In this document: positions 10,297 to 54,754 of the stretch, in pieces
Layout: every line of letters begins with the position of its first letter
How positions within the stretch are numbered: the stretch's first letter is position 1
Assembly: GCA_016177205.1 (NCBI GenBank)
Contig: JACOVS010000039.1
Span: 1 to 54,754 of the forward strand
DNA length: 54,754 bases
DNA from: Candidatus Aenigmatarchaeota archaeon
Lineage (GTDB): Archaea > Aenigmatarchaeota > Aenigmatarchaeia > JACPZZ01
Reading direction: 5' to 3'
Notes under the pieces: generated by a model
Told to the model about the DNA's origin: nothing
Databases searched by the model: none
Seen by the model: the letters and a program-made list of their open reading frames with translations, nothing else
Position numbers and translations under genes: made by a program

Positions 10297-10312
10297 AAAA
10301 GAAAAAGCTTAT
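10265..10312 (-). promoter_or_regulatory. conserved ~48-nt intergenic module, copy 1 (stop codon, TAAGC, T-rich/A-rich palindrome, CCTTAAGG, purine run)
   Basis: Near-identical to 13218..13266 and similar to 48113..48162. Lies between the 107-aa pilin gene and the 899-aa gene. Confidence 0.6.
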
Positions 10313-10635: not shown

Positions 10636-10668
10636 AATATCACACGCCTTCCATCGTATTTTCGTTGA

Positions 10669-11097: not shown

Positions 11098-11102
11098 CTA
11101 AA

Positions 11103-11297: not shown

Positions 11298-11607
11298 AAT
11301 TCGTACCCCTTATTTCAGACACGCATTTTTTCCCGGCCGCGCAATCCTCGTTGTTGTCTATTCCCTTCCACGCCCTGCACCCGCACTCATTCTTGCCTTC
11401 AACGGTGTGCACGCACGCTTTGTTGTCGGTATTTCCGCAGAAATCCTGTTTTGCCAGGCACCCTGCCGCGGATATTATCTCGTTCCTGTCCCTTTCAACG
11501 TTCTCGCCGCTGCTTTTTATCCAGCCAAGGTAGAGTGCCAGCAATACCAGCGCAATGACCAGCGCCATCATCAACGCGAAATTGTATTCTGACATGCCTT
11601 TCCGCAT
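11281..11607 (-). CDS. type IV pilin-like protein (class III signal peptide)
   Basis: MRKG|MSEYNFALMMALVIALVLLALYLG. 108 aa, 8 Cys. Confidence 0.75.
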   Translation of the reverse strand: MRKGMSEYNFALMMALVIALVLLALYLGWIKSSGENVERDRNEIISAAGCLAKQDFCGNTDNKACVHTVEGKNECGCRAWKGIDNNEDCAAGKKCVSEIRGTNYGKCQ

Positions 11608-11642
11608 AGGATTATTTTGTTTTTGCCGACTTTATTATCCAT

Positions 11643-13193: not shown

Positions 13194-13217
13194 TTTTGAC
13201 CTCTTGATTATCTATTA

Positions 13218-13266
13218 TTTTCTTTTTACCTTAAGGGTTTTTCTTTTTTAAAAGAAAAAAGCTTAT
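13218..13266 (-). promoter_or_regulatory. conserved ~48-nt intergenic module, copy 2
   Basis: ttttctttttaccttaagggtttttcttttttaaaagaaaaaagcttat matches copy 1 except for one extra A. Lies between the 67-aa and 516-aa genes. Confidence 0.6.
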
Positions 13267-13466
13267 ATATTACAAATGGCCGACCCGAACCCGCCCATGG
13301 ATGTCGCTAAAAACCCGCATATCCCTTTTCCAACAGTCATCGCAAGCCCGCCCGAACCCGCCTCTTCATTTGCGAACGCTATCACAACAACCAGGACAAC
13401 TATGGCCACGACAACCGCGCCGATGAAAACAAGCATGGCGCTCGTTATGCCTTTTTTATCAGTCAC
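13263..13466 (-). CDS. mini pilin-like protein (67 aa, GTG start)
   Basis: TDKKG|ITSAMLVFIGAVVVAIVVLVVVIAF. 2 Cys. The start overlaps the upstream stop (GTGA). Confidence 0.6.
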   Translation of the reverse strand: MTDKKGITSAMLVFIGAVVVAIVVLVVVIAFANEEAGSGGLAMTVGKGICGFLATSMGGFGSAICNI

Positions 13467-13708
13467 TTAACCACTCCCACCGTGTGCGCATAAAGCCACG
13501 TCGACGCCCTTAGCGGGAAGCAAACGGTTTTATCAACCAGTCCGCCGCCCACGTCGCACGCGTTCGGTATGTTCGCGCCGGATGAAATGCCCTGTAACGC
13601 TATTATAACCGCTATTATCACGGCTAACGCCACTATAGCCAGTATCGCAAGGAAAAAAGTCTTTCCCGCCTCCGCCTCTATCTGCCCCTTCACCATTGCC
13701 GTTTTCAT
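13463..13708 (-). CDS. pilin-like protein (start moved to the ATG at 13708)
   Basis: MKTAMVKG|QIEAEAGKTFFLAILAIVALAVIIAVIIAL. GAAAGGAAAC lies upstream of the ATG. 2 Cys. Confidence 0.6.
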   Translation of the reverse strand: MKTAMVKGQIEAEAGKTFFLAILAIVALAVIIAVIIALQGISSGANIPNACDVGGGLVDKTVCFPLRASTWLYAHTVGVVK

Positions 13709-13753
13709 TTTAATAGTTTCCTTTCCACCAAAGCCCAAGATTTTTCTTTTCCC

Positions 13754-14182
13754 TTATCGCCTGTCCACATCCACTTCTATCAGCGACGCCCCGCCGGTTA
13801 ATGATATTTTGACGTCGTAAACCTTTTTATCAGCGTTTATCGTATCGCCCGTGTATTTCCACGCTAGGTTTTCACAGTCCGTATCCGCGAGCTTGGCCGC
13901 TATTTCCGCAGCTCCGAGAGAACCGGACGTGGATTTGTATTGCGACGTGCTGTCAAAGCCTTTTGCAAAACTGCTTCTCGACTGCCAGAGGCTGCACATG
14001 CCGTACGCTATCCTCGTCGCAAGCACGTCTGCGTTGTCCACGTACAAGTCGCCCGTTTCTGGTAGCTGGTTGAACCTTATCAGCCTTGGCAGTATCAATG
14101 ACGCTACCCCGTATAGCAGGGACGCTACAATGAACGCCGCAACTAGCCAGAACAAAAACCTTGGCTGGTCGGCGGCTGCCAT
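13754..14182 (-). CDS. N-terminally anchored pilus-locus protein
   Basis: 142 aa. N-terminal helix FLFWLVAAFIVASLLYGVASLIL. The ATG overlaps the platform gene stop by 1 nt. Confidence 0.6.
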   Translation of the reverse strand: MAAADQPRFLFWLVAAFIVASLLYGVASLILPRLIRFNQLPETGDLYVDNADVLATRIAYGMCSLWQSRSSFAKGFDSTSQYKSTSGSLGAAEIAAKLADTDCENLAWKYTGDTINADKKVYDVKISLTGGASLIEVDVDRR

Positions 14183-16254: not shown

Positions 16255-16258
16255 CGTA

Positions 16259-18529
16259 TCACATGGCCCTAGCCGTTAATCGCACGCGTTCCCTGGCCCT
16301 TGAAGAAAACCACTTGTCCCACCTGGAAAATATTTCCTTCGGGTCCAAATAACCCGTTTCTTCCTTCAGCCTGGACGAGATTATGTGGAACTGTTCATTG
16401 GATTGCATCACCCACGGCGCTTCCATCAATTCGGGCTGGTTAAGTTTTATGGAATAATCCACCATCGCCTTTTTGATGTTGGCGCGCAGCTGTATGTTTT
16501 CCCACACGTCTTCCCAGCGTCCTTCCCACTCCCTTGTTAACGACGCGATGCGGTTTATTATTTCAGATTCTCCTGTTGAAAGTATTTCCGTTGGCTTCAA
16601 TGAATCAGAAGCCGCAGAATATTCCATCAGGTTTACAAACCCTTTCTCTTCGTACGGGTCGGATTTCCAGTGTTTCCTGACCTCTGTTAACTCGGTCACT
16701 CGTCTAAAACGATGCAAACCGTCCGCAGAGCGCAGCATCTTTGATATTACGATTATATCCGTCGCTTTGAAACTTGTTGACGGAACTCCGAGATCATTTA
16801 CGACGCGGTCGTAAACGCCGTAAGGCGACTCGCCGTGTATCGTCCCTGCGACGACGTTGGATAACGCGCCAATACGCATCGCCTCATAGAGTGCGCGGGC
16901 TTCCGTGCTTCGCACTTCTCCCACGATCAAAGAAGAGTCGCCCAACCGCAACGCAGTTCGCAGCGCCTCGTCCGCTGCCATCTCTGTTTCAACGTGTGTT
17001 ATCACGGAACGCGATTTCAACCGTTCAATGTTGTATCCTATTCTTCTCATGTAATCGACGGCAAGTTCAATGGTATCTTCAACGGTTAGGATTCGCTTGT
17101 TCGGTGAGATTTCCAGCATCAGGGCATTTAAAAGTGAAGTTTTGCCGCTGCCTCTTCCGCCTGCAACAAGCATGCTTGACGACCCGTCCACCAAAAAACT
17201 CATCACACCCGCGAACAGGGGGTCTATCATCCCGGATTTTATGAACAACGGAAGCGTCCAGGGTTTATCCCTGTGTCTTCGGAAAGCGAATGCCAAACCC
17301 TCGGGCGACAGTGTTTTTGTGATCGCCGCAACTCTCGCCCTGCCGCCGGGAACGGTTATGTCCGTGTCTAAAACAGGGTTCGCTTCGTCTAAAGGTCTTC
17401 CAGACGCGATTCGGAACCGCGTCGCCCATGACTCGGCGTCGCCCTTTGTCGGTATCAGGTTTGTCGAGCATTCGTTGTAATCTGAATGGTTTATGTAAAT
17501 AGGATTTTGTCCTATCGGCGAGTTGATGTAAATGTCCTGTATCTTCTCGTCGGCCAGTAGGATTTCTAACACGCCGAACCCGGCCGTGTACCTTGTCAGG
17601 ATTTTTGTCATGTTTTCAATCTCCGCAGGGTTCAGAAAAATTCCCATGCTCGTCGACAAGTCCCGTATCATGTCGCGCCCTATGTTGGCGAATATTTCCC
17701 TGGCGCTTTCCGGGTCTGAGAACTCGGTCTCAACAGGCTTGTGCTCTGCCATATAACGCCTCGCAGCGTCCAACAGCATGTACTTGTCCTCTGTTAACTG
17801 GAATTCTGGCGGCACAACATGGTAGACCAGTTCGGATTTCGTCGGTATGCGGTAAACCTCAACTTCGATGTCGCCCACCTTGTACCTATCTATGGCCTGC
17901 CCGTCCTTTGGCGTCGCCGACATGAACCTCGTTAGCATGAAGTTCGGCCTTATGGTAGGATGGAAAATTTCCCGGTAAAGCGTGCGGTCCCCGATGTGGT
18001 AACCGGCAATGTTGTCCTTCACAAGCTGGATTAACGCGGTCGATTCAAGGATCCGCTGTATGGGGGCGAGCGCGTTGTTGACGTAATGGGCGTAGCATTG
18101 TATGTGGTAGGGGTTTTTTTTCGCGTCCATCTTTACTTTCCGTATCTCGCGCAGTACCTCTGCGTACGCCCCTATGGGGTCGCGCCGCATCAGGTCAACA
18201 ACAATCCGCTGCGCGTTGTGGCTTCGTTCCTGTGTGTGGCGGTCGCATTCCGGTATTGTTAAATTCGTCACAGTCAGCAGGCGGCGCCCGCGCACGATCT
18301 CGTCCAACGCGTTCGCGATCTCGGCCAGGAGCCTGGTCTGCTCCCAGTCGTATTCATACTCCCTGGTCTCTGCAAGAATAATGCGGGAGACCTTTTTCAC
18401 CTCGATTATTTTGTCTATGGCCGCGGCCATTATCGCCTCGAAGTCTTCGAGGCTAGACCCGTATAGCGTTCCCAGCGTGTTCAGGCGTATGGAATTGTCC
18501 TCCGGGCTGTAGTCAAACTTGAGAGCCAT
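16259..18529 (-). CDS. type II/IV secretion-family ATPase (FlaI/PilB/VirB11-like)
   Basis: Walker A GGRGSGKTSLLNAL, Walker B-like DSSLIVGEVRSTEA and His-box-like GTIHGESP. 756 aa with a long N-terminal domain. Confidence 0.9.
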   Translation of the reverse strand: MALKFDYSPEDNSIRLNTLGTLYGSSLEDFEAIMAAAIDKIIEVKKVSRIILAETREYEYDWEQTRLLAEIANALDEIVRGRRLLTVTNLTIPECDRHTQERSHNAQRIVVDLMRRDPIGAYAEVLREIRKVKMDAKKNPYHIQCYAHYVNNALAPIQRILESTALIQLVKDNIAGYHIGDRTLYREIFHPTIRPNFMLTRFMSATPKDGQAIDRYKVGDIEVEVYRIPTKSELVYHVVPPEFQLTEDKYMLLDAARRYMAEHKPVETEFSDPESAREIFANIGRDMIRDLSTSMGIFLNPAEIENMTKILTRYTAGFGVLEILLADEKIQDIYINSPIGQNPIYINHSDYNECSTNLIPTKGDAESWATRFRIASGRPLDEANPVLDTDITVPGGRARVAAITKTLSPEGLAFAFRRHRDKPWTLPLFIKSGMIDPLFAGVMSFLVDGSSSMLVAGGRGSGKTSLLNALMLEISPNKRILTVEDTIELAVDYMRRIGYNIERLKSRSVITHVETEMAADEALRTALRLGDSSLIVGEVRSTEARALYEAMRIGALSNVVAGTIHGESPYGVYDRVVNDLGVPSTSFKATDIIVISKMLRSADGLHRFRRVTELTEVRKHWKSDPYEEKGFVNLMEYSAASDSLKPTEILSTGESEIINRIASLTREWEGRWEDVWENIQLRANIKKAMVDYSIKLNQPELMEAPWVMQSNEQFHIISSRLKEETGYLDPKEIFSRWDKWFSSRARERVRLTARAM

Positions 18530-34676: not shown

Positions 34677-34790
34677 TTAGATCTTAGTTTAATAACAATG
34701 TCAGATATTTATGCTCTTTTTGCCTTCCTTTTTAATCGCTTAGGTCAATTAATCAAACAGGCAAATTGGAAGCATACCATACGATAACTA

Positions 34791-34822
34791 GAAGCGTATC
34801 CTATACCAATTGGGTATGTTTC
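34791..34822 (+). repeat. hairpin repeat Ha (11-bp stem including three G-U pairs on the plus-strand RNA, 10-nt loop)
   Basis: GAAGCGTATCC-TATACCAATT-GGGTATGTTTC. Confidence 0.6.
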
Positions 34823-34837
34823 AGTTCGCAGCGCTAG

Positions 34838-34898
34838 AAATATGTGCATCGGAAACTGACGCATACATAGTATGCGTCCGGTTGAAAAGCACATATTT
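34838..34898 (+). other. structured 61-nt element in the tRNA-Gln 5' flank, homologous to the core of the anticodon-loop intron
   Basis: Outer stem AAATATGTGC/GCACATATTT, shared TGTGCATCGGAAACTGA, inner hairpin GACGCATAC-ATA-GTATGCGTC. Confidence 0.6.
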
Positions 34899-34907
34899 CA
34901 GTCGAAT

Positions 34908-35103
34908 AGCCCCGTAGTGCAGCGGCCAAGCACGGCGGGCTTTGGGTAGTCACAAATTGAAGCTTGTGCATCGGAAACTGAAGCATACCTATGGTATGCT
35001 TCTAGCTGCAAAGCGCAAGCTTAAGCTAGAAGTTACCCGTAAACGGCGGAAGTGCTGAAGTGTAAAAATTTCGCACTGCCGATTTCGAATCCGCCCGGGG
35101 CTA
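34908..35103 (+). tRNA. tRNA-Gln(UUG) with two introns (about 34946..35034 at 37/38; about 35050..35083 at 53/54)
   Basis: Hand-folded cloverleaf. Acceptor AGCCCCG/CGGGGCT (A1-U72), U8, D-stem GTGC/GCAC with a GG loop. Anticodon stem GCGGG/CCCGT, loop CT-TTG-G|intron|A. T-stem GGCGG|intron|TTCGAAT-CCGCC. Discriminator A. Confidence 0.75.
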
Positions 35104-35111
35104 ATCAGCTA

Positions 35112-35143
35112 GAGGCATACCGTATACTGTATCGGTATGCCTC
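35112..35143 (+). repeat. hairpin repeat Hd (11-bp stem, 10-nt loop) 9 nt after the tRNA 3' end
   Basis: GAGGCATACCG-TATACTGTAT-CGGTATGCCTC. A half copy CGGCATGCTTC follows at 35153..35164. Confidence 0.7.
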
Positions 35144-35215
35144 GGCCTGAATATCGGCATGCTTCAGTCTAAAAACAAACACGGAAGTGTTTGTCAATTA
35201 GTCGTAGGTGTTTTA

Positions 35216-44103: not shown

Positions 44104-45228
44104 CTACACTTCCTCGTCCTTGACTATCTTGCCTATGTGGTGTATGAACTTCCTCACATATTCGCGGTGTGAATAAATCTCCTTGTCCGGTATCTCCGTT
44201 ACCTTGCCTTCACGGACTTTCTTCCTCATCTCTTCAAGACGGTTGAATATGTCCACGTAATGCCGCTCCACAAGCCCTTCATCGACAAGGTATTTTTTGA
44301 ACGCGCTCTGTATCTCATCCTTGTTGTCGGGAAGCTTCTTAACGGATTTTAACGCCGCTACAACAGCCTTTGTCATAACGTCGTAGCTTTTTTCCACTAT
44401 CCTCTCCTTCTTTTTCAGTTCCAGCGCATCCGCGACCTGCAGCATCCTGTTTACGAATTCATCGGCCTTTTTCAGCCACTCATCAAGATCCTGGCCCTTA
44501 ATGTCGTTTATTTTTTTGTGTTCCACCTCTTTTCTGAACTGGTTTATTTCGTCCAGCCAATCCGCATATTTTCCTTCTATTATCTTGGTATCTACAAGGT
44601 GCTTGCGAAATTCTTCTGCGGCCCGTCCGGGCGACGGCGGCGAGAAACCCAGCGACATCAAAACCGCTTGCGTCATGTCTATCATCGCATAATAGCAGTC
44701 CTCCGCAACCATGTATAATTTGACTTCATTGACCCTCCGCAGCCTCTTTGGAGCCTTGTCCAACAACGCATCGGCCGCTTCTTTTGTTGCGGGTATGCGG
44801 CCCAGTTCAAGCAGCCTTTTGACCGGCATGAAAAATCCCGTATCGAAAACGGGTATGCCGTCGCGAACGAAGTTGTAAATCAGCGGATGCGACGTCCGTA
44901 CCATGTCCCAGAATTCCGTCAGGGTGTACGCCGGCTGTACGATTATGTCCTTGTTTATCTCCTGCGCCATTATGTCGATCTCGACGTCGATTCTTCTTTT
45001 CTCCTCTGGCGTGAAATTTACCTTCGTGTCGTCGATTACAAGAAACATGTCTATATCCGAATTGCTGCGGAACTCGTCCCTCGCCACGGACCCGACTAAA
45101 ACAACGCACTTCACGTATTTGCCGAACTTGTCGAGTATCTTCTGTGTCAACGCCTTGACCATGTCGGCCCTGCGCTTGCGCGCTATGTCCTTGATGGATT
45201 TTCTCTTGGGTATTGATTTTATCCTCAT
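44104..45228 (-). CDS. nucleotidyltransferase-domain protein with a helical C-terminal region, long form
   Basis: VVLVGSVARDEFRSNSDIDMFLVIDD. GIPVFDTGFFMPVKRLLELGRIPAT matches 24620..25699. Confidence 0.75.
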   Translation of the reverse strand: MRIKSIPKRKSIKDIARKRRADMVKALTQKILDKFGKYVKCVVLVGSVARDEFRSNSDIDMFLVIDDTKVNFTPEEKRRIDVEIDIMAQEINKDIIVQPAYTLTEFWDMVRTSHPLIYNFVRDGIPVFDTGFFMPVKRLLELGRIPATKEAADALLDKAPKRLRRVNEVKLYMVAEDCYYAMIDMTQAVLMSLGFSPPSPGRAAEEFRKHLVDTKIIEGKYADWLDEINQFRKEVEHKKINDIKGQDLDEWLKKADEFVNRMLQVADALELKKKERIVEKSYDVMTKAVVAALKSVKKLPDNKDEIQSAFKKYLVDEGLVERHYVDIFNRLEEMRKKVREGKVTEIPDKEIYSHREYVRKFIHHIGKIVKDEEV

Positions 45229-45230: not shown

Positions 45231-46094
45231 TTATTCCTCTGCGTACCCTTTCAGGAATTTATTCATCGCCTCTACGAATTCGCCGGTTTCGCGCCGCTGC
45301 TTCTCCAAAACATCCCCGGGTATGTTTTTTATTTCCTTGTGGTCTATTTTTTTCCACAACTGGAATGTGTGCACGTAATAATCCACGTACTTCTGGTCAA
45401 GTTTTCCCTCCTTAACCATCCTCTCCAGCACCGACGGAATTTCGCGCGGCTCCGGCTGGTGCTTGTACGCAAGCATGGAAACGGCCTGCGCGGAGGCCGT
45501 CATCGCGTCATAGTACCGTATGATCGCCGCCCGTATGTAATTTTCCGCCTTTTCCATGTTCTTCGGCGCTATTTTGGAGTAAAGCCTTATCGCCTCCTGG
45601 GACGGCGTTATCCTGCCCGCTTCCAGGAGCCTTTGCGTCGGCTTCAAAAAGCCCGCGTCATAAATCGGGTAACCGTAGCGCAAAAAATTGAACAGTATTG
45701 GGTCGCCGTGCCGTATCCAGTCCCAGAAGTCGGTTATCGTATGGACCTGCGGGTGCAGATCGCCGATGCGGTCCGCAATAAGCCTGATATTCTCGTCGGC
45801 CCTGTCTATCTGCTCGGGAAATATTTTGGGATCCGTGTCGTCCAGGATAATCAGCACATCAACGTCGCCCGCCTTTTTCGCGCCTTTCGCCGCAGACCCG
45901 AACAACAGCACGCCTTTGACAAGGTCCGGAAATTGTTCCCGCACTATCTTTGCAAATTTCATGGCCTTTGAAACGCGCGCCTTAGGCTCATAGTCCTTCC
46001 CTTCCGCTCTCTTATCAGCTTCCACAAGAACCCTTCCGCTTTTTATTGCGAGCCCTGAAATATAAGCTTCTACCTTAATTCTTCCTTCTTCCAC
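45231..46094 (-). CDS. nucleotidyltransferase-domain protein, short form (start uncertain: 46094 or the ATG at 45962)
   Basis: VLLFGSAAKGAKKAGDVDVLIILDD. GYPIYDAGFLKPTQRLLEAGRITPS. Confidence 0.7.
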   Translation of the reverse strand: MEEGRIKVEAYISGLAIKSGRVLVEADKRAEGKDYEPKARVSKAMKFAKIVREQFPDLVKGVLLFGSAAKGAKKAGDVDVLIILDDTDPKIFPEQIDRADENIRLIADRIGDLHPQVHTITDFWDWIRHGDPILFNFLRYGYPIYDAGFLKPTQRLLEAGRITPSQEAIRLYSKIAPKNMEKAENYIRAAIIRYYDAMTASAQAVSMLAYKHQPEPREIPSVLERMVKEGKLDQKYVDYYVHTFQLWKKIDHKEIKNIPGDVLEKQRRETGEFVEAMNKFLKGYAEE

Positions 46095-48094
46095 TTCTCT
46101 GGAAGCAGTCCAGGCCTTTCCGTGGCAACGCGCCCGAGGTACGTGTGCTCTTCTTCCGGGACTGCCAGCGTGCCGGCCAGCGGCGCGAAGAAATGGTTTT
46201 GTATCACTGTCATTTGCCTTTGCTCCGAGAATTCCGATTCAGGCGAAACGCCGTAGAATTCCGGCGGCAGTTTGTCGGGATCCATCTCTTTTTCCAGGTA
46301 TTCTACGATGAGCCTCATGGCATAAACGCTGGAGCGCATCCATTCCAGCGGGCTCTGCCCTCCACCCCTTTCAAAAATAACCCAGCCGTCCCTGAAGCCT
46401 TTTTTTCTCAATTCGTACAGGTAACGGTAAATAAGCTCCTGCGCCTCCGAGCCCACGTAAACCGGCGCGTGCGCGGGGTGTATCGGTTTTGGCTGCCCCA
46501 CATGAATGGCTTTGCAAAACGCGCCGCCGTCCGGCGGTAATTCCTTGATCTCAAGGTCGATGTTTAAGTTATGGGTTAACATGTGCTCGAAATCGAGCGC
46601 AATGAAAACCAGGTCCGACAGGTAATTGGCGTTGCCGTTGAACTCCCTGATTTTTTTTACTAATTGGTAAATGTGCTCGGAGCGCACGATTCTCAGCAGG
46701 CCTTCCTGTTTTTCCGTGATTTGAGGCGTCTCAAACATAGCTACGATTTTGTTTTCTTTTATGTACTCCTTCATTGTCAGTTCCTTTCCGCCTTTGTTTT
46801 TTTCTATTGTGAACTTTCCAGTAAAAGGGTCGCGGTACTGCATTTTAGAGGAGAAATGCCCGTTCACGTACTCCATCGCAACGACTGTCGAGACTAAAGC
46901 TTGCACGCGGCGGTCGTGGCTTCTTAGAAGGTTATCGACTGTTATATCTTCGTCGCCTTTGAACGCCTTGCCCTCTGCCCGGAACTGCGCGCTTAATTGG
47001 CTTTTAACATATTCCGTATGGCAGATTGTTTTCCATTGCGGCGATCCCTGCAGCAGCCTTCCTACGATTTCATACGCCAGCCGCTCGTCGTAACCGAAAA
47101 ACGGGACGTATTTGTTGGACATTTCATCCTTGATGAATTTTTCCGCGTAATCGTGCAGCTTGTCCCTGACATTGTTTCTCATCCTGGCAAAGTACGCGTC
47201 CAGCTCCGCGCCCCGCCGGTTCAGATTGTTGAATATTATCGTTACGTAATTGTCTATCGAACCCTGCCCCCGGTTTATCGCCTCGGTCTGTTGCGTGATG
47301 AAATCCTCGGTCGGGACCGGCGCCAGCACGCTCCGGCGGTTTTCGTCCAGCATTGGAACCTGGACAATGTTTCCGTGCGCCCTCAATTCCTTCTCAAGGT
47401 CCTGCTTCATGTCCCGCCACATCATCTTGCTTATGTTTTCCCGCACCTCGCCTATGGCTATGCCAGCAATAGGCGACAGGTATTCGTTGGCAGTGTCCTG
47501 GAATTCCCTGTGCCTCGGATCCGTAGCTTCCGGTCCGCCGCCGACTATGTAGTTTTCAAGTATTATCCTCCTTATCGTGACGATCTGTTCGTTTGTAAGG
47601 TGGGGGTATTCCTTTGACCTGAATTTGCGGTTTTCCCCATCCCCCGAGGGCTGGAAATACAGCAGGACATAGTACAGTGTGTTTCCGTCCGGCGCGACTA
47701 GTCGTTGGAAGCGATAACCTAACATCGAAGACCCGATTGTGGGCGGCGGTTCTGAAGAAGCGTGAAATAGCATGTACGACGTTTTCGTCCTTACCGCGCC
47801 TTTTATGTGGTCGGTTAGCCTCTCGTGGAAAATGTCCCAGATGTCTTTTACCGCGTGCTCTAGTTTCATGTCGAACTCTCCGTGTATGCCATAATTTAAT
47901 CCCAAATCTTCGCGGGCTATGGTCAGTTGCTGCTCCAAAAGGGGTTCCATGAATTCCGACGGCGATTCGATGTCCAGTTGAACAAAGGTGACTCCGTACG
48001 TCGCCGCGGACATGGCCTTAAACCCGAGCCCCAGCAGATCCGGCGTCTTGGCTATCCCCCACCACCCGCTTGATACGCCTATTGTGTACACCAT
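46070..48094 (-). CDS. large uncharacterised protein (674 aa), possibly a split xylose-isomerase-like TIM barrel
   Basis: Long uninterrupted ORF. N-terminal VQLDIESP...YGIHGE...MLFHAS and C-terminal ALDFEHM...AIHVGQP...HAP...VIFERGGG resemble AP-endonuclease-2/XylA-like barrel strands. Weak inference. Confidence 0.6.
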   Translation of the reverse strand: MVYTIGVSSGWWGIAKTPDLLGLGFKAMSAATYGVTFVQLDIESPSEFMEPLLEQQLTIAREDLGLNYGIHGEFDMKLEHAVKDIWDIFHERLTDHIKGAVRTKTSYMLFHASSEPPPTIGSSMLGYRFQRLVAPDGNTLYYVLLYFQPSGDGENRKFRSKEYPHLTNEQIVTIRRIILENYIVGGGPEATDPRHREFQDTANEYLSPIAGIAIGEVRENISKMMWRDMKQDLEKELRAHGNIVQVPMLDENRRSVLAPVPTEDFITQQTEAINRGQGSIDNYVTIIFNNLNRRGAELDAYFARMRNNVRDKLHDYAEKFIKDEMSNKYVPFFGYDERLAYEIVGRLLQGSPQWKTICHTEYVKSQLSAQFRAEGKAFKGDEDITVDNLLRSHDRRVQALVSTVVAMEYVNGHFSSKMQYRDPFTGKFTIEKNKGGKELTMKEYIKENKIVAMFETPQITEKQEGLLRIVRSEHIYQLVKKIREFNGNANYLSDLVFIALDFEHMLTHNLNIDLEIKELPPDGGAFCKAIHVGQPKPIHPAHAPVYVGSEAQELIYRYLYELRKKGFRDGWVIFERGGGQSPLEWMRSSVYAMRLIVEYLEKEMDPDKLPPEFYGVSPESEFSEQRQMTVIQNHFFAPLAGTLAVPEEEHTYLGRVATERPGLLPEKWKKEELR

Positions 48095-48112
48095 TTTATT
48101 TCACCGCGCATG

Positions 48113-48162
48113 TTTTTTCTTTCCCTTAAGGATTTCTTTTTTCTTAAAAAAGAAAGGCTTAT
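48113..48162 (-). promoter_or_regulatory. conserved intergenic module, copy 3 (diverged)
   Basis: ttttttctttcccttaaggatttcttttttcttaaaaaagaaaggcttat lies between the 633-aa and 674-aa genes. Same element order as copies 1 and 2. Confidence 0.5.
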
Positions 48163-50064
48163 TTAATCGCCTATTCTCGCCGCGCCCTCAAACCAGCTGA
48201 TAAACTCATCACGGTACGTGTCAGCGAAGGCTTTCGAAAATTGCCGCGTTATGCGGTCCCTCAGGTTTGTTTCGTACGGGCCTTTTTTGAAAAACTGGAA
48301 CCTGTTGCCCGAACCGATAAAGATTTCCAGGAAGTTTTGCATTTCGTTCAGCCTGTGATCCACGGATTTCACAATGTCGAATTCCTCCTTTTTCCCGTCG
48401 TCCTTTTTTTCAGCAGCGTAAAGTTCCGGGAATTTCTTTTTCGCCACGTCCTCCATGTTGCCCGTTATCCCCGCGTCTATTTTTTCATTCTCGTCTATCG
48501 CTGTTAATCCCAGGACCTCTTCCACGTCCCGGTCAAATCTCTGCTCGCTCGCCCACCTTTCCACAAGCTTGACAAGAAGCACGTTCTGGCTGATGAAAGC
48601 GATTTTTATGAAAACGAAGCCGTCGTCCGCAGTCCCCTGTGGAAGGTTTATTATAGCGCGGGCAAATGTCAGGTCCCATAGTACATAGTATATATAGTCC
48701 GGGTGCAGCTGCAGTGTATTTTGGTACGTTTTCGGCTGGGATGTAGACTCCTTCAGCAGCCAGACAACCTGCGCTTCCATTTCCTTTGGCTTTATCCAGG
48801 GGTGTTCTTCAATCAGCGAGGGGCCGTCCACGCGGCCTCTCTTGCTGCCGTGCTTATCGCCGTACAAAGCGACCTTTGCAACCACATCGTAGGGATTTAA
48901 CCAAAACGTGGTCGTGGTTTTGCCTCCTTCCACATCCCTGTAGCTTAACCCGAACCTTTTCAGTATGGCCTCATCTTCTGCCCTTTCCTCCTTCTTTTTT
49001 CCCAGGTATTCCAGTTCGACGTCTATTTCCTTTCTTTGAACGCTCGCCCTGTACATGTCGCCCGGGGCAAAGGGTTTCCATGCGTAAGTAGCTATGTCGT
49101 GAAACGACATCGCGTGCGCGCCGACGTGTAATCTGTGAGTCATCGCTCGCCCCCCCGTTTTGGCCGCGACCCCATCGGCTCCGGCCGATGCCCCGGAAGG
49201 ATCCGACGCCTTTTCGTGACTCTCCTGAAGCAGTTCGTGCTGTATAACATAAGGCCGCAGCCATTTTTTGTATTGTTCTATGCTCTTTCGCCTTGCGTTC
49301 ATCAGGCTCAGTATGTTCAGGTACCTCTGTTTTACAGCGCCCTTAAAAAGGTCTTTCCATTTCAGGAAAAGCTTGTTTTTCGTTGCCAGGACAACAGCCT
49401 CTGCCGTTGTTATTTTTGGTACGAAATCCTTTACAATGTCCTCGGACGCGGTCATGCTGTCCTGCAACTTCATGAAATCCACTATGATGTTCGGCCACCG
49501 GCTGACTATTAATTTCAGCGCGACGCCCTCGCCCGTGTGGACGTCAACCTGGTCTATGAAAATCGCCTTTAACGAGGTGTTCGATTCCAGTATGTCCCTC
49601 TCAGCCTTTTTTTTCGCCTCTTCGTTGTTTTCCTTCTTCGCCTTTGCAAGGTCTTTGGCGCCCTTTTCGTACCTGTTCAAATAGTCCAGGTAGTCCTGGT
49701 ATTTCCTGTGGTCGTGGGCCAGCAGCTCGTAATCGCTTATCGCCCGCGATGCGGATTCAAGGCCGGCCTTGATTTTCGTTTCCAGGTCCTGCTTCTGCGC
49801 GATCGTAGACGCGTAATATTCCCTGTATGTGGGATTTATCTCAAACCTGTCCGCGTATTTGAAAACGCCGTACCCGAATTTGGGAAGCTGCAACATCGTC
49901 TTGACGTAAAGGAGCGAGATAAATCCCAGCGGCCCGGTCGGGTTTATCAGAATGCCGGGGAAGTTGTAGGCATCGATTCCGAAGCTGTCCTGTACGCCGT
50001 TCTGGTCCGGCGGGTATGTTATAAGGAACTCCCCGTTCATTCTGTTAACCACGAATCTTACCAT
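48163..50064 (-). CDS. large uncharacterised protein (633 aa) with a central coiled-coil segment
   Basis: Long ORF with no NTP-binding or other motif recognised. Charged helical stretch at about aa 95-170. Confidence 0.6.
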   Translation of the reverse strand: MVRFVVNRMNGEFLITYPPDQNGVQDSFGIDAYNFPGILINPTGPLGFISLLYVKTMLQLPKFGYGVFKYADRFEINPTYREYYASTIAQKQDLETKIKAGLESASRAISDYELLAHDHRKYQDYLDYLNRYEKGAKDLAKAKKENNEEAKKKAERDILESNTSLKAIFIDQVDVHTGEGVALKLIVSRWPNIIVDFMKLQDSMTASEDIVKDFVPKITTAEAVVLATKNKLFLKWKDLFKGAVKQRYLNILSLMNARRKSIEQYKKWLRPYVIQHELLQESHEKASDPSGASAGADGVAAKTGGRAMTHRLHVGAHAMSFHDIATYAWKPFAPGDMYRASVQRKEIDVELEYLGKKKEERAEDEAILKRFGLSYRDVEGGKTTTTFWLNPYDVVAKVALYGDKHGSKRGRVDGPSLIEEHPWIKPKEMEAQVVWLLKESTSQPKTYQNTLQLHPDYIYYVLWDLTFARAIINLPQGTADDGFVFIKIAFISQNVLLVKLVERWASEQRFDRDVEEVLGLTAIDENEKIDAGITGNMEDVAKKKFPELYAAEKKDDGKKEEFDIVKSVDHRLNEMQNFLEIFIGSGNRFQFFKKGPYETNLRDRITRQFSKAFADTYRDEFISWFEGAARIGD

Positions 50065-50068
50065 TGGT

Positions 50069-50299
50069 TCACCCCAGCAAAAGCCTTATGCCTATGATCA
50101 GCAGGAACAGGCCCGCGAATATCGCAACCAGAGTGAAGGGCCCGAACTCCAAGTCTTCCGTGTCAGGGAAGTATATTATTAAAAAAAGGCCAGCGCCTAT
50201 AAGCATCAACCCCCCAATTTGTTCGAAAACCACGCAGATCAATATAATATTGTACTCGGCCGGTAAAAAAGTTATTCTGCAGGCTGAAGCATACCGCAT
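50069..50299 (-). CDS. 2-TM miniprotein (true start probably internal, e.g. a TTG near 50239)
   Basis: LMLIGAGLFLIIYFPDTEDLEFGPFTLVAIFAGLFLLIIGI. The first ~5 codons of the track ORF (50299 down to 50286) overlap hairpin repeat He. Confidence 0.4.
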   Translation of the reverse strand: MRYASACRITFLPAEYNIILICVVFEQIGGLMLIGAGLFLIIYFPDTEDLEFGPFTLVAIFAGLFLLIIGIRLLLG

Positions 50300-50317
50300 A
50301 CTGTATCGGTATGCTTC
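50286..50317 (+). repeat. hairpin repeat He (11-bp stem, 10-nt loop), near-identical to Hd with compensatory arm changes
   Basis: GAAGCATACCG-CATACTGTAT-CGGTATGCTTC. Confidence 0.7.
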
Positions 50318-50319
50318 AT

Positions 50320-50502
50320 TCAGACGCTCCAGAGGTAAAGTCCGATGATTATCAGCGTGCCCGGCACAAGCACGCCGATAAACCTGAACTTCGGCTCGTA
50401 ATCGCGCGACGGAAAGAACGCCCCCATGAAAAAGCCCAGGATGATCAGTACGGTTCCCAGCACCTTCAGGAAAACCATGTCAAAGCTGGTAAATTCAACC
50501 AT
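50320..50502 (-). CDS. 2-TM miniprotein, paralog of 50069..50299
   Basis: VLGTVLIILGFFMGAFFPSRDYEPKFRFIGVLVPGTLIIIGLYL. Same TM-FP-acidic-loop-TM layout. Confidence 0.5.
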   Translation of the reverse strand: MVEFTSFDMVFLKVLGTVLIILGFFMGAFFPSRDYEPKFRFIGVLVPGTLIIIGLYLWSV

Positions 50503-50511
50503 CGCAATCGC

Positions 50512-51396
50512 CTAGAACAATACTAAGTATAGCCCGGCAAGGGTTAAAATGGTTCCGAGCAGAAGGCCAGAGCCTGTTATGCCCGGTATCTCCCTTTCGC
50601 TGATCCTAAGGAAAAACGCTATGACAATAAGGCCGGCAGCCATTATGAACAACGCCGTCCCCCGGAGAAGTCCCGGGAACAACCCTTGTACCGAGGCCAG
50701 GAAAAACACTGCCAGTATCGCCGAGGCTGTCCCGATCCACGATATTACCCCGTGCCCGGACGTCGAATCCGGGAACATCCTGGCTGCCGCGTAAGCAAAC
50801 AGGGCCAGGACAGCAAATATAAAAGTTGGCAAAAACCCTGAAAGCACAAAAATGAACCCGCCCAGAACCGCAACCGCTGCCAGCAGGAAGAACATCCAAC
50901 CACTCTCCTCTGAGAACTTGGAAAATGCGAAGACCATTACGCCGAACATTGTTATCAGTAACATCAACCCTGTTGCTGTTAAGCTCATCCCGGTCGGCAG
51001 CGCGCCGCCCCCAAGGAATATTATGATGGCCGCGGCTACCGTGAGTACAAGGATGTGGCTGTCAGGCTTGTTGTTCCCGGCAAGGCCGTAGACAAACACC
51101 AGTATTGCGCTGAAAACCAAAAGAAACGTGGCCACGCTCGTAAATCCCGAGGTCGAGCTTGCCAGGAACCCGCCCACGATAAGTACGGACGCCACCGCAA
51201 TCGCCGCGCCAGGCCTTTCAGCCCCCGCACTCAAAAAGCCGAAAAGGGCCAGGAGTATGAACAGTCCCGTGGTTATGCTTAACGTGGAAAAGGCCTCCAA
51301 AACGCCCCGTGGCCCACTTACAAGGACAAAGAGCAGAAGAACAGTTAGCGTGACCAGCAAAACTCCGGCCTTCAATATGGCCGATTCGGACGCCAT
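50512..51396 (-). CDS. polytopic membrane protein (about 9-10 TM), uncharacterised
   Basis: 294 aa, almost entirely Gly/Ala/Leu-rich hydrophobic helices. Confidence 0.7.
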   Translation of the reverse strand: MASESAILKAGVLLVTLTVLLLFVLVSGPRGVLEAFSTLSITTGLFILLALFGFLSAGAERPGAAIAVASVLIVGGFLASSTSGFTSVATFLLVFSAILVFVYGLAGNNKPDSHILVLTVAAAIIIFLGGGALPTGMSLTATGLMLLITMFGVMVFAFSKFSEESGWMFFLLAAVAVLGGFIFVLSGFLPTFIFAVLALFAYAAARMFPDSTSGHGVISWIGTASAILAVFFLASVQGLFPGLLRGTALFIMAAGLIVIAFFLRISEREIPGITGSGLLLGTILTLAGLYLVLF

Positions 51397-51454
51397 AAAA
51401 CCATCTGTATTAGATTTTAAGGGGGAAGATTAAATAATAAAGTGAGGTTCTGAC

Positions 51455-51967
51455 ATGGTCATTGCAAGGACAAAACTAGTAATCGAGGACCCTTTCATAA
51501 GGTTCGACCCGTACTACATCGTCATGAATTATCGCGGGCCCAAGCCCGAGCGATTTTACACCCGTTTGTCCGAGCTGATACCCCTGATCTTCGGCGTCGA
51601 CCGCGGGCAGGTCCAGGAGCGTACGTTCAAATGGGACAACGTGGGCGACGCGCAAAAATTCGATGTTTTCTGGGAAATTTCAAAGCCGCTGGACAGGTTT
51701 ACGTACTTCCGCATGTCCGTAGAACTGACCGGCCAGAGCACAAAAGGCGAGGGCGTTGCCCGCGTGCGCCTATTCGGGACGCTGCGCACAGAGTACCCGC
51801 AGGATACGCTCTGGCAGAGAAGCATATTCTACGAGCTTATCAGAATGTTCTGGCACACCATTTTTTACAAGACACAAAGGTTGAAATACCTGCACGAGGG
51901 CCGCGCGCTGATAAGGAACATGGAAATAGAGATCAAAAAGGCTTTTGAAGAATTCAGGACGGCTTGA
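51455..51967 (+). CDS. uncharacterised alpha+beta protein, paralog A
   Basis: 170 aa. Aligns with 52027..52521 (GP.P, E+.F+WD, G.ARV/G.VRM, L.TEY/L.TDF, FYK, C-terminal amphipathic helix). Confidence 0.6.
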   Translation: MVIARTKLVIEDPFIRFDPYYIVMNYRGPKPERFYTRLSELIPLIFGVDRGQVQERTFKWDNVGDAQKFDVFWEISKPLDRFTYFRMSVELTGQSTKGEGVARVRLFGTLRTEYPQDTLWQRSIFYELIRMFWHTIFYKTQRLKYLHEGRALIRNMEIEIKKAFEEFRTA

Positions 51968-52026
51968 CCCGCCCTGATTTTCAATCAATAACAAAGTGGA
52001 CAATTATACAAACCGGGATGGTTTAG

Positions 52027-52521
52027 ATGGGAAAATGGCGCATTGCTGACGACCTCTTCGCACCTCATAAGGAAATCGACATGGTATACACCGGGCCGGA
52101 GCCATGGAAAATGGTCAACCAAGCCAACTCTCTGATACGCCAGTATTTCGAAATCAGCGGCACGCGCTGGACCCAGAAGGACGTGAGATGGGACATCACC
52201 GATGTTGTCCGGACATTTTTCACTGAGGTGGATTTCAAGAGGGAGGAAGACGGTTTCACAAACCTGCTGATCAACGTGCGTTACCAGGGAAAACAGCACG
52301 CTGAGACAAAACAAGGCACGGTGCGCATGATAATGTACGCGCAACTGCAAACGGATTTCGAATACGGCAACCCTCTGGTAAAGCTTGCCATTTTGATTTA
52401 CCTGAATTATTTTTACAAGGCCCGCAGGATCGCGATGCTGAAACGCAACGAAGAAAGGATGAACATGACGCTCAACGACCTTCGCACAGCGTTCAATTTG
52501 CCGGAGAAGATTAGCAGATGA
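52027..52521 (+). CDS. uncharacterised alpha+beta protein, paralog B
   Basis: 164 aa, paralogous to 51455..51967. Confidence 0.6.
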   Translation: MGKWRIADDLFAPHKEIDMVYTGPEPWKMVNQANSLIRQYFEISGTRWTQKDVRWDITDVVRTFFTEVDFKREEDGFTNLLINVRYQGKQHAETKQGTVRMIMYAQLQTDFEYGNPLVKLAILIYLNYFYKARRIAMLKRNEERMNMTLNDLRTAFNLPEKISR

Positions 52522-52883
52522 GCCTCCTGGACAGTGTGCTGGGCGCTGTAAGGAAGTTCTCCCCGAAAAAACCGGGCCTTGGAGAAGTGAAGCAAAGCAT
52601 GGAACCGCCAAGCGTGCGGCTTCCGTCCGAGGATGTTTTGAAATCGTACGAATCCCGCTACGAGGATAAAACGCCGCGCACGCCCATGGATGTTTTGCGT
52701 GAACCGCAACTGCCTGTGACGCAGCAGTATCCCGGCGCGCCAACGTACCCGGCGCAACCGAGCCCGGGCGGCGGCCCGAAGATAGACCTGATACTCGCGG
52801 AGATAGAGACCGTGAAGGCTCAGTTGAAGGTGTTGGGCGAAAAACTTGATATATTGGAAAGCCACTACAGGAAACCCTACTGA
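52518..52883 (+). CDS. Pro-rich protein with a C-terminal coiled coil
   Basis: ATGA overlap with the upstream gene. C-terminal IDLILAEIETVKAQLKVLGEKLDILES. Confidence 0.5.
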   Translation: MSLLDSVLGAVRKFSPKKPGLGEVKQSMEPPSVRLPSEDVLKSYESRYEDKTPRTPMDVLREPQLPVTQQYPGAPTYPAQPSPGGGPKIDLILAEIETVKAQLKVLGEKLDILESHYRKPY

Positions 52884-53377
52884 ACGCTCAACTCGGTTTT
52901 CATGTTTGTTATTTCCGTTATCGCTGTCAGAAGGTCCTCTTGCTTTGCGGGCAGGCTTTTCAACTGGCTCTTCTGCATTGTTATCTTAATGCTTTCCATC
53001 CCGTTCGAATAAAGTTTCCCGATACTGACTCTTGCCGGGAACATAAGGCTTGATATCATACCTTTGTAATCTTCCCTTCCAACAATCTTGACCTGTTTGC
53101 CAAAATTTTTTCTCAACTCTTTGGTTATTCTTCCCTCCCTGCCAACCATGTTCGCTACGTCTGTTTTCTGGCAAAGTATCAGTATCAGGCTGTCCAGGTC
53201 CACGACCTTTTCTATGACAACATTGTCCAGGGATCTGGTGGTCTTCGACAGGGCGTACAGGTTTTTTATCACCTTGGCGCCTAGGCCGCTTATCCTTCCG
53301 GTTTCAACATTTTTTCTGCATCTGGCGCAAAGTATGTCAGACTGGAGGCAAATGGAGCATATCGGGGTCTTCATCAA
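52877..53377 (-). CDS. NusA-like KH-domain protein with an N-terminal zinc ribbon
   Basis: CSICLQSDILCARC, then the KH-like NMVGREGRITKELRKNFGKQVKIV. Confidence 0.65.
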   Translation of the reverse strand: MMKTPICSICLQSDILCARCRKNVETGRISGLGAKVIKNLYALSKTTRSLDNVVIEKVVDLDSLILILCQKTDVANMVGREGRITKELRKNFGKQVKIVGREDYKGMISSLMFPARVSIGKLYSNGMESIKITMQKSQLKSLPAKQEDLLTAITEITNMKTELSVQ

Positions 53378-53399
53378 ACCGCCCCAAGGACATCCACAC

Positions 53400-54754
53400 C
53401 ATTCACGGGTGGAAGGAATTGAAATATTCTATCGGAACTCCGTACACTGAGCTGTTTAAGCGCGCCTTCGAAGATGATGATATTATGTTGGGCAGAGCGA
53501 CGGTCAATATTAAGATTCCACACGATGACGCTATCTCGAAAACCATAGGAATTTATCGCAAAGCATTGCAATTCTGTGTTGATGTTGCTTGGGAAAAACG
53601 AATAAGGAACAACGTAAGATTGCACCCCTTCGTCTACAAAGAAATCAGGGGTTTCGGATTGCCGAGTCAACTCGCAATCGCTTGCATCAAGCAGGCCTGC
53701 GGAACCGTCAAACGGGCCAAATCCAGACCTATGATCAAAGGGCATTCCATGCGTTTCAACAACCCACGAAGTTTCTCCTACAGGCATGGAGTTCTCAGCC
53801 TTTCCACAATCGAAGGCCGCAAGAAGTTCAATGTCGCGCTTCCCAGATACGCCGAGAAATACATTGATTGGAAAATCAATGAAAGCGTCCTTTGGGTAGA
53901 CAGAAAAAACAGGATGTTCTTCGGTATCTGTTTTTCCAAAGACATTGACATTCCAATACGCTCCGCTCAACACAGGCAAGTTCTCGGTGTAGACGTCGGA
54001 ATAAAACACCTTGCCGTCACTTCCGACCGTAAATTCTACGGGAGCGTCATCCCTAAGATGCGCAGGCATCAGGAACATACTGCTTCCCTGCAAAGCAAAG
54101 GAACGAAATCCGCCAGAAGGCACCTCAAAAAGATTTCTGGCAGATGGACACGTTTTATGCGGTGGAAGAACCACAACATCAGCAGGGAAATCGTAAACAG
54201 TTTGGGAGAAGGCAACATCGTTGCATTGGAAGGAATAACAAACATCCGTTCCAACAGGGGAAAGAGGTTCAACAAGCAGCTGCATTCGTGGGCTTTCAGT
54301 CAATTGCAAAGCTACATCGAATACAAGGCTGTCCAGAGAGGTTGTCTGGTCGCTTATATCAACCCGCAATACACAAGCCAGACCTGCCGGATGTGCAATG
54401 AAATCGGGACAAGAAACAAAGGCTTCTTCTCCTGCGGGCATTGCGGTTATTCCTGCAACGCCGATCTGAACGCCTCTTTCAACATCAGAAACAGGGTCAA
54501 GCCACTGGCTATGACCTTCGGGCTGCCTGTAAACCAGCCTATTGTAGCAAGCAATGACGGACTTCTTAATGTCGAACATTTTGAATCTCCTGATCTTAGT
54601 TACAATGCCCACAGACTTTAGCCGTGGGTAAGTTTATGCGAGGTCACGCTTATAACGACCACAAATCATCTTTATTTTATGGCCGTGAAGATTTTTAGCA
54701 GTGAGAAACATAAGAATATTGGGCCTTACATCGATAAATTGCTGGGAAATTCCC
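53400..54754 (+). mobile_element. stand-alone tnpB element (IS1341/IS605-derivative type); ends not defined, the right end may lie beyond the window
   Basis: tnpB has no adjacent tnpA. About 130 nt of non-coding sequence follows the stop before the window ends. Confidence 0.5.
53419..54621 (+). CDS. tnpB: TnpB (IS200/IS605 OrfB-type RuvC nuclease); alternative ATG start at 53485
   Basis: RuvC-I LGVDVGIKHLAV, RuvC-II IVALEGITNIR, Zn finger CRMCN...CGHCG, RuvC-III CNADLNASFNIRNR. Confidence 0.85.
   Translation: MKYSIGTPYTELFKRAFEDDDIMLGRATVNIKIPHDDAISKTIGIYRKALQFCVDVAWEKRIRNNVRLHPFVYKEIRGFGLPSQLAIACIKQACGTVKRAKSRPMIKGHSMRFNNPRSFSYRHGVLSLSTIEGRKKFNVALPRYAEKYIDWKINESVLWVDRKNRMFFGICFSKDIDIPIRSAQHRQVLGVDVGIKHLAVTSDRKFYGSVIPKMRRHQEHTASLQSKGTKSARRHLKKISGRWTRFMRWKNHNISREIVNSLGEGNIVALEGITNIRSNRGKRFNKQLHSWAFSQLQSYIEYKAVQRGCLVAYINPQYTSQTCRMCNEIGTRNKGFFSCGHCGYSCNADLNASFNIRNRVKPLAMTFGLPVNQPIVASNDGLLNVEHFESPDLSYNAHRL

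Follow-up and report, generated by a model that had tools for sequence, protein, structure and literature searches.

A gene cluster restricted to Aenigmatarchaeota that encodes a candidate endonuclease IV-like metalloenzyme, nucleotidyltransferases and small membrane proteins

Gene content and organization of the cluster

The cluster described here is carried by a contig of 54,754 nt from Candidatus Aenigmatarchaeota (DPANN), and the whole of this stretch is referred to below as the window. A preliminary description of the sequence had delimited an uncharacterised cluster of nine genes at positions 46070-52883. The open reading frame (ORF) calls give eight genes in this interval, and the ORFs that had been placed individually are all there. 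The eight families recur in the same order in related genomes, where the conserved unit extends beyond the interval, down to position 44104, and takes in two nucleotidyltransferase genes. The cluster is a vertically inherited, phylum-restricted module composed of two divergent operons.

The minus-strand operon starts with P (50512-51396), a protein of 294 amino acids (aa) with 10 predicted transmembrane (TM) segments, followed by the two miniproteins m1 (50320-50502, 60 aa) and m2 (50069-50233, 54 aa, GTG start), each a predicted hairpin of two TM segments. Then come C (48163-50064), a protein of 633 aa, and T (46070-48094), a TIM-barrel protein of 674 aa predicted to be an endonuclease IV-like metalloenzyme. 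The operon continues with the nucleotidyltransferase N1 (45231-46094, 287 aa) and ends with a second one, N2 (44104-45228, 374 aa). The plus-strand operon consists of a1 (51455-51967), a basic alpha+beta protein of 170 aa, of its paralog a2 (52027-52521, 164 aa) and of p (52518-52883), a Pro-rich protein of 121 aa with a C-terminal coiled-coil segment. The starts of P and a1 are separated by a region of 58 nt (51397-51454) that presumably holds divergent promoters. The frame of m2 is open up to position 50299 (ORF 50069-50299, 76 aa); since the orthologs have 54 aa and the GTG codon at 50233 gives this length, m2 was taken as a protein of 54 aa.

The genes are tightly packed. In the window, the stop codon of m2 is 4 nt from the start of C, the 3' end of T and the start of N1 overlap by 25 nt, and 2 nt separate the end of N1 from the start of N2. 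On the plus strand, a2 and p are joined by an ATGA overlap, which had been reported in the preliminary description together with the 58-nt divergent spacer and is, like the spacer, present in the sequence. The median spacer between C and T is 1 nt in the related species, and the two genes overlap by 4 nt in two of the loci (L003 and L005). These tight junctions and overlaps suggest translational coupling.

A search of the eight proteins of the interval 46070-52883 against Pfam and NCBIfam gave nothing at the curated cut-offs or better than an E-value of about 0.002, and a motif scan detected no Walker A motif in any protein of the cluster. This agrees with the earlier statement that none of these proteins has a confidently assignable motif or an NTPase signature. 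No tRNA genes were found and no known RNA family was detected anywhere in the window. The scan for promoters and terminators of the bacterial type was not above the shuffled background, the models being bacterial and not relevant to an archaeon.

Distribution and conserved gene order

The occurrence of the cluster was assessed by a scan of one genome per GTDB species, in which homologs of C were found in the genomes of 196 species. ORFs were called in 86 fetched loci and searched with iterated hidden Markov models (HMMs) built from each protein of the window. The synteny counts given below refer to 80 species-level loci, the denominators being limited to the loci with enough flanking DNA. These 80 retained C loci are mostly titled Aenigmatarchaeota, the rest being titled archaea generally, except for one labelled Woesearchaeota. 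The C family comprises 242 homolog clusters, and all those with a named source come from Aenigmarchaeota/Aenigmatarchaeota or from an "archaeon". The a1 family comprises 326 homolog clusters, of which all the organism-labelled ones are from Aenigmatarchaeota. For T, a word-indexed search recovered 18 close clusters, and 198 clusters, at 50% identity, were recovered by a full HMMER pass over 1.84 billion representative proteins. The homologs with a name, those of T included, come from metagenome-assembled genomes of this phylum. C is not encoded by any viral contig.

The recurrent arrangement is the a1-a2 pair on one strand and, divergently, m-C-T-N with an optional second N on the other, and it is found even where C is only about 30% identical to the C of the window. 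T directly follows C in 67 of 70 loci, and C has an m gene before it in 67 of 74; a nucleotidyltransferase gene comes after T in 49 of the 61 informative loci, and 56 of 64 loci have the divergent a-a pair. Orthology of a1 and a2 tracks gene position in 69 loci, and homologs of p adjoin a2 in 27. Synteny in related genomes had been proposed as a check on the cluster, and the order is indeed kept across the loci of the related species. P and the second miniprotein are confined to the close clade of the window (L001, L002 and L007-L013) and are not part of the core. Likewise, the flanking genes are not kept beyond the close clade; Trm1, for example, occurs in only 8 loci, within the close clade and at one locus outside it. 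Within the cluster a1 is conserved best, the protein being 93-94% identical to its orthologs in L002, L008 and L010, where the identities are 70-81% for T and 66-76% for C. Taken together, the genes very probably form a single functional module.

The 407 collected proteins include no gene fusions between families of the cluster, the long homologs of T being explained by larger inserts, and no domain was found to be shared among the a1, C and T families. The hypothesis that C and T are paralogs was rejected, as the comparisons show them to be unrelated. A few loci depart from the common order, with a split T or an a-a pair rearranged relative to C (L022, L058, L047 and L067). In L022 and L058, the T gene appears as two adjacent matches in tandem, corresponding to a split gene or a frameshift.

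A split TIM barrel with a predicted endonuclease IV-type metal site

The AlphaFold2 model of T, obtained with 18 homologs, has a pLDDT of 78.6 and a pTM of 0.79. It comprises two barrel halves (residues ~1-128 and 446-612) separated by an insert of about 330 aa (~129-445), and a C-terminal tail (613-674). Confidence is high through most of the insert and of both barrel halves; the pLDDT drops below 50 at residues 10-15, 120-127 and 615-674, and its mean over the first 40 residues is about 46-66. The insert is located between strand 4, which ends at His111, and strand 5, which ends at Glu455. Foldseek searches of this model against the PDB returned exclusively TIM barrels of the xylose isomerase-like type, with E-values from 2e-5 to 1e-2. 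The best matches were D-tagatose/D-psicose 3-epimerases (E about 2e-5, target-normalised TM-score of about 0.6-0.69, about 620 query columns), and UlaE, YcjR, endonuclease IV (Endo IV; 1qtw) and the apurinic/apyrimidinic (AP) endonuclease of African swine fever virus (ASFV; 6ki3) were also recovered. The preliminary description had seen in T the two halves of a barrel of the xylose isomerase/AP endonuclease 2 type split by an insert of about 330 aa, and this view is borne out by the model, the Foldseek matches and the profile alignments.

Conservation was computed from 78 diverse members of the family, down to 20% identity. Residues Lys26, Glu47, His71, His111, Gly137, Glu455, Asp501 and Glu575 are invariant in this set, and Glu503, His504, His531, His542 and His413 are conserved in at least 90% of the members. 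When the family profile was compared to the sequences of the PDB, the best matches were AP endonucleases, namely pE296R of ASFV (E = 0.0065) and Endo IV of Thermotoga maritima (E = 0.076). After removal of the insert, the profile aligns end to end with Nfo, the Endo IV of Escherichia coli, with an hhalign E-value of 2.9e-5 over 257 columns. In this alignment the following residues of T and Nfo are paired: His71/His69, His111/His109, Glu455/Glu145, Asp501/Asp179, His504/His182, His531/His216, His542/His231 and Glu575/Glu261; the partial alignments of the two proteins agree with these pairs. The nine metal ligands of Nfo, which form its trinuclear zinc site, are His69, His109, Glu145, Asp179, His182, His216, Asp229, His231 and Glu261 (E. 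coli numbering), and the eight paired residues of T align with eight of them.

The same insert-free profile scores worse against the epimerases than against Nfo (1.4e-3 for UlaE and 0.065 for YcjR). Neither UlaE nor YcjR has a histidine at the positions of His71 and His111, which correspond to the Zn1 site; of the Zn3 histidines, YcjR retains only the one equivalent to His504 and UlaE retains neither. In Pfam, the T of the window has no match, whether the insert is kept or removed, and the ortholog of locus L006 reaches 30.9 bits on PF01261 for a cut-off of 31.1. From these alignments we conclude that T is, by prediction, a highly derived enzyme with a metal site of the Endo IV type. That it acts as a phosphodiesterase with such a multi-metal site is, on the same basis, somewhat likely.

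Located on the catalytic (C-terminal) face of the barrel, the insert should control the access of the substrate, and its near-invariant residue His413 may contribute to the site. Over its last 60 residues T is strongly conserved, yet modelled with low confidence, a pattern that would fit a segment folding only on a partner.

Two paralogous nucleotidyltransferases

N1 and N2 are paralogs with 32% identity (E = 3e-38), and their nucleotidyltransferase domains are above the Pfam cut-offs. N1 matches NTP_transf_2 (5e-9), and N2 matches Polbeta (1.7e-7), NTP_transf_2 (5.9e-7) and, through its C-terminal HEPN-like helical domain, HEPN (6.5e-6). N2 also has a duplicated helical segment. The nearest solved structure is the kanamycin nucleotidyltransferase (2.6e-5). 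The motif GS...DxD (Gly46, Ser47, Asp58 and Asp60) is 98% conserved across 94 members of the N family. The RNase motif Rx4-6H of HEPN domains is not conserved in the N family, the conservation of its arginine being below 70%. Weak matches were obtained with families of the MNT type, including the candidate defence families PDC-S09, MntA and HalB.

Proteins without detectable relatives

The AlphaFold2 model of C, based on an alignment of 69 sequences, has a pLDDT of 80.2 and shows a small N-terminal domain, three long helices (81-145, 148-177 and 220-278; a hairpin and a third helix) and a globular alpha/beta domain. A long coiled-coil segment had been noticed previously in this protein. No significant fold match was obtained with Foldseek, the best E-values being 0.2 in the PDB and 0.066 in BFVD, and the C profile had no match among the PDB sequences either. 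The invariant polar residues His117, Asp118, Arg120, Tyr122, Asp171, Asp174 and Thr177 are clustered in the helical hairpin; being carried by two antiparallel helices, they should face each other. In the model, this clustering suggests that the hairpin holds a pocket for binding or catalysis and is not just a coiled coil with a structural role. Readings of C as a protein of viral origin or as a PspA, BAR, SMC-like or Tc-toxin protein were dropped, no significant fold match having been found in the PDB or BFVD. For a relation to PspA/ESCRT-III, the comparison of the C family with the PspA of E. coli gave an hhalign E-value of 0.14 over 26 columns, and the helical matches of Foldseek were considered as noise.

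The claim that the two proteins of about 165 aa are paralogs was upheld by BLASTP (E = 7e-8 for a1 against a2) and by the comparison of the two families with hhalign (E = 1e-39 over 173 columns). Both proteins are basic, with isoelectric points (pI) of 9.3-9.6 (9.55 for a1), and neither has a match in Pfam or in the PDB. Shells of the gas-vesicle, microcompartment and encapsulin types were considered for a1/a2 together with the miniproteins and were dropped, as none of the sensitive Pfam models matched.

The hydropathy scan gives 10 TM segments in P and two in each miniprotein, in accordance with the counts proposed earlier. The miniproteins had been described as paralogs of about 60 aa; one has 60 aa and the other 54 aa, and their paralogy holds with a weak similarity (E = 0.005). 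The m family exists in versions of two TM segments, of four and longer. As the last hairpin of P (residues 248-294) matches the HMM of the miniproteins (E = 7e-8), P appears from its sequence to be an expanded m protein and not a separate, transporter-like component; one of its orthologs has only 186 aa. In the hydropathy scan, in which no dedicated signal-peptide predictor was used, C, T, a1, a2 and p lack an N-terminal hydrophobic segment and, for this reason, do not look secreted.

Intergenic elements and neighbouring genes

The spacer between C and T contains an AT-rich module (48113-48162, minus strand; repeat family D2) centred on the palindrome CCTTAAGG and located 19-68 nt upstream of the start codon of T. 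Two identical copies of 42 nt are present at 10265 and 13218, and the copy at 48113 is 76% identical. The palindrome CCTTAAGG occurs 4 times in the 54.7 kb for 0.77 expected, always in one of three intergenic regions (10213-10306, 13218-13259 and 48113-48162), each of them just upstream of the start of a minus-strand gene. The downstream genes code for two pilin-like surface proteins, of 899 and 516 aa, and for T. Both surface-protein genes belong to a type IV pilus-like locus (4633-18529) that includes an ATPase of the T2SSE family (16259-18529), a polytopic membrane protein of 690 aa (14182-16254) and six or more proteins whose N-terminus carries a hydrophobic helix, among them Cys-rich proteins of 899, 516 and 442 aa without Pfam match. 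The sharing of a module with the pilus locus, put forward in the preliminary description, is thus real at the level of a 76% copy, whereas the link is specific to this genome: the module is absent from the C-T spacer of the related loci. It has no stable RNA fold (z = -0.4) and is probably a genome-specific internal promoter or operator, possibly with a terminator. In this organism only, it may co-regulate T-N-N with the two surface-protein genes.

A second element lies between m1 and m2 (50286-50317, minus strand). It is a 32-nt palindrome of the form GAAGCATACCG-N10-CGGTATGCTTC, predicted to fold into an RNA hairpin of -21.9 kcal/mol (z = -4.6). The same hairpin is found at the same position in loci L010 (~7749) and L011 (~7750), with one compensatory pair. 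A near-identical copy is located at 35112-35143, just upstream of the aTrm56 gene, and a further site at 34791-34822. This palindrome could be an element of RNA processing or stability, or a shared operator. The region 34677-35158, between the aTrm56 gene and a gene for a fusion of orotate phosphoribosyltransferase and orotidine monophosphate decarboxylase, is dense in repeats and palindromes (D4, D19 and I4). Elsewhere in the window, a direct repeat of 220 nt (4037-4256 and 4359-4578, 77% identity, 322-nt spacing) lies in or beside an ORF (3837-4568) without Pfam match, possibly a gene with an internal duplication.

To the right of the cluster, a gene coding for a NusA-like protein with a zinc ribbon and a KH domain (52877-53377, minus strand; PRK06418, 118 bits, below the cut-off) converges on p with an overlap of 7 nt. 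In 24 of the 86 loci, some of them from distant clades, this gene is next to the a-a pair, and it may be loosely linked to the cluster. A TnpB/Cas12f-like gene (53419-54621, plus strand; OrfB_IS605 and a Cas12f1-like TNB domain) lies directly to the right of the cluster. An ORF of 412 aa antisense to it (53374-54612) is probably spurious.

Discussion

Proposed function of the cluster

The reading that we favour, with a probability of roughly 45%, is that of a membrane-tethered cytoplasmic complex combining phosphodiester and nucleotidyl chemistry, probably on nucleic-acid ends. The minus-strand operon (P)-m-m-C-T-N-N would provide a complex on the cytoplasmic face of the membrane, with the 2-TM hairpins of the m proteins as anchor and C as scaffold or partner. 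T would be a metallo-phosphodiesterase of the Endo IV type whose insert of about 330 aa, on the face of the active site, sets the substrate. The phosphodiester that it cleaves or cleans would most probably belong to a nucleic-acid backbone or 3' end, and one or two N enzymes would then move a nucleotide onto the exposed hydroxyl. The plus-strand operon a1-a2-(p) would supply two basic paralogs, probably associated as a heterodimer, with an accessory role or a role in substrate binding. We infer the physical assembly, the tethering of C, T and N to the membrane, the substrate and the roles of a1, a2 and p.

To our knowledge, all characterised enzymes with the metal site of Endo IV act on DNA, which makes nucleic-acid ends the most economical substrate. 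The assignment of a nucleic-acid substrate is nevertheless tentative, with odds somewhat below even, for T has a lid domain and an acidic pI and the nearest relatives of N act on small molecules, which makes a sugar, a lipid head group or another phosphodiester substrate possible. A wider reading, in which the cluster would encode a phylum-defining, membrane-anchored nuclease/nucleotidyltransferase machine that processes nucleic acid from the host or the environment, another phosphodiester-linked polymer or a lipid head group, seems improbable at present.

Several observations weigh against a membrane-tethered complex acting on nucleic-acid ends. The top fold matches of the whole T model are sugar epimerases and not Endo IV, and the E-values that relate T to Endo IV sequences are modest (2.9e-5 in a single pairwise test and 0.0065 in the PDB). 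Asp229 of Nfo falls in an alignment gap and has no conserved counterpart in T; His539 of T is invariant in the closer set of 18 members and not in the family of 78. T is acidic (pI 5.9), and its insert on the catalytic face may exclude duplex DNA. Enzymes of the kanamycin nucleotidyltransferase type also act on small-molecule hydroxyls, and about 20% of the informative loci have no N gene beside T. Finally, the roles given to C, a1, a2, m and p are guesses, as no relative informs on any of these proteins.

Alternative explanations

A first alternative is a pathway acting on sugars or head groups, in which T would be an isomerase or epimerase of sugars or polyols, N would nucleotidylate a sugar hydroxyl and the membrane proteins would couple the product to an envelope glycan or to a scavenged lipid. 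It is favoured by the 3-epimerases at the top of the Foldseek results (E = 2e-5), by the tetrad E-D-H-E of T, which all members of the superfamily share, by the aminoglycoside nucleotidyltransferases found as closest solved or named relatives of N, and by the membrane proteins encoded in the same operon. We regard this pathway as unlikely, because T keeps the Zn1 and Zn3 ligands of Endo IV (His71, His111, His504 and His542), of which YcjR lacks three and UlaE all four, because its profile is nearer to Nfo than to UlaE or YcjR with AP endonucleases as best sequence matches in the PDB, and because no glycosyltransferase or lipid enzyme is encoded in or beside the cluster. The preliminary description had favoured instead an envelope or cell-surface machine, such as an apparatus for secretion, adhesion or host contact. 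It is true that the operon holds 2-TM, 10-TM and large coiled-coil proteins and that, in this genome, T shares a promoter-like module with two pilin-like surface-protein genes. The soluble proteins C, T, a1, a2 and p nevertheless lack N-terminal hydrophobic segments, no protein has a Walker A motif, and the membrane units of the core are only small 2-TM hairpins, the 10-TM protein and the second miniprotein being missing from most of the phylum. In relatives the orthologous position lacks the shared module, and the recognisable enzymes are of cytoplasmic types whose chemistry points to phosphodiesters and nucleotidyl transfer. We therefore abandon the surface machine as the preferred interpretation and consider it quite improbable.

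A toxin-antitoxin or anti-virus module, made of a nucleotidyltransferase-HEPN pair, a nuclease and membrane effectors, would account for the weak matches of N to PDC-S09, MntA and HalB, for the HEPN domain of N2 and for the nuclease-like features of T. The distribution of defence islands is typically patchy, whereas that of the cluster is fixed throughout the phylum, and in this the cluster is unlike them: it is near-universal, fixed in position and vertically conserved, up to the 93-94% identity of a1 between species. In PADLOC and PHROG the core families have no match, N alone giving generic nucleotidyltransferase matches in PADLOC; with the unconserved arginine of the HEPN motif and the absence of C from viral contigs, this leaves a role in defence with the slimmest of chances. 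The genes could also be unrelated housekeeping genes, adjacent merely by the collinearity of small compact genomes. In the close clade the conserved order does extend to the unrelated genes of Trm1, TFIIB and a histone, and the NusA-like KH gene is often adjacent (24 loci). The core order, for its part, is kept among loci whose proteins are only about 30% identical and whose flanking genes differ, the overlaps suggest translational coupling and all the families have the same phylum-restricted distribution, so that mere collinearity is very unlikely.

Comparison with known systems

With respect to Endo IV (Nfo, PF01261, including the enzymes of ASFV and T. maritima), T has the same (beta/alpha)8 barrel and the same order of ligands on strands 3 to 8, with eight of the nine ligands of the trinuclear site aligned to invariant or near-invariant residues. 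Endo IV is a compact single domain of about 285 aa whose open catalytic face bears the DNA-binding loops, whereas T, known from sequence and model, has 674 aa with a variable insert of about 330 aa and a conserved tail of 60 aa, and is encoded in an operon with membrane proteins rather than alone. The ketose 3-epimerases (D-tagatose/D-psicose 3-epimerases, UlaE and YcjR) give the best fold matches (TM-score about 0.65) and share the tetrad E-D-H-E; UlaE and YcjR differ from T at the Zn1 and Zn3 positions, as given above. The kanamycin nucleotidyltransferase ANT(4') and the MNT-HEPN proteins resemble N by the NTP_transf_2 fold and the motif GS...DxD followed by a HEPN-like helical domain, and N1 and N2 could pair as the kanamycin nucleotidyltransferase does in its dimers. 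N differs from them in scoring far below the cut-offs of these families, in the good conservation of its family and in its fixed place downstream of T phylum-wide. The MNT-HEPN defence systems are patchy and mobile and have the motif Rx4-6H, features that the N family lacks. Type IV pilus and secretion machineries rely on a secretion ATPase, on a polytopic platform protein and on hydrophobic N-terminal signals of the prepilin type, whereas the cluster has no Walker A motif and no N-terminal TM segment in its soluble proteins.

In bacteria, RNA-decay assemblies are membrane-tethered and associate RNase Y or RNase E with poly(A) polymerase. The cluster may follow an analogous logic, with an anchor, a coiled coil or scaffold, a metal-dependent phosphodiesterase and a nucleotidyltransferase. 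It differs from these assemblies in that no relation of sequence or fold was found and that, in Pfam and NCBIfam, its core proteins have no KH, HD, S1 or RNase domain.

Significance for the Aenigmatarchaeota

The literature search found no paper linking Aenigmarchaeota with endonuclease IV or describing the cluster. Castelle et al. 2021 (PMC8204110) reported an Aenigmarchaeota-specific Module 128, with families "completely lacking functional predictions", which is set here beside the cluster by its description only. Judging from sequence comparisons, T and N are new branches of known folds, Endo IV-like and kanamycin nucleotidyltransferase-like, respectively. For C, a1/a2, m and p no relatives were detected, and no system described so far has this combination of parts.

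The DPANN archaea are known mostly from genomes whose lineage-defining genes have no assigned function. The cluster gives such families a concrete shape, with a fixed order in about 200 species, a candidate catalytic centre, partner enzymes and membrane anchors. The minimal result is that the endonuclease IV family, with its well-studied DNA-repair fold, gains a new branch marked by a large insert. Should the proteins assemble into one complex, this would be a phylum-restricted machine without described counterpart and a handle on the special biochemistry of the lineage. If, moreover, this is a phylum-defining machine, C, a1/a2 and m would serve as its structural parts and would have new folds, and the nuclease/nucleotidyltransferase machine would be core to how reduced, host-dependent archaea obtain or recycle building blocks.

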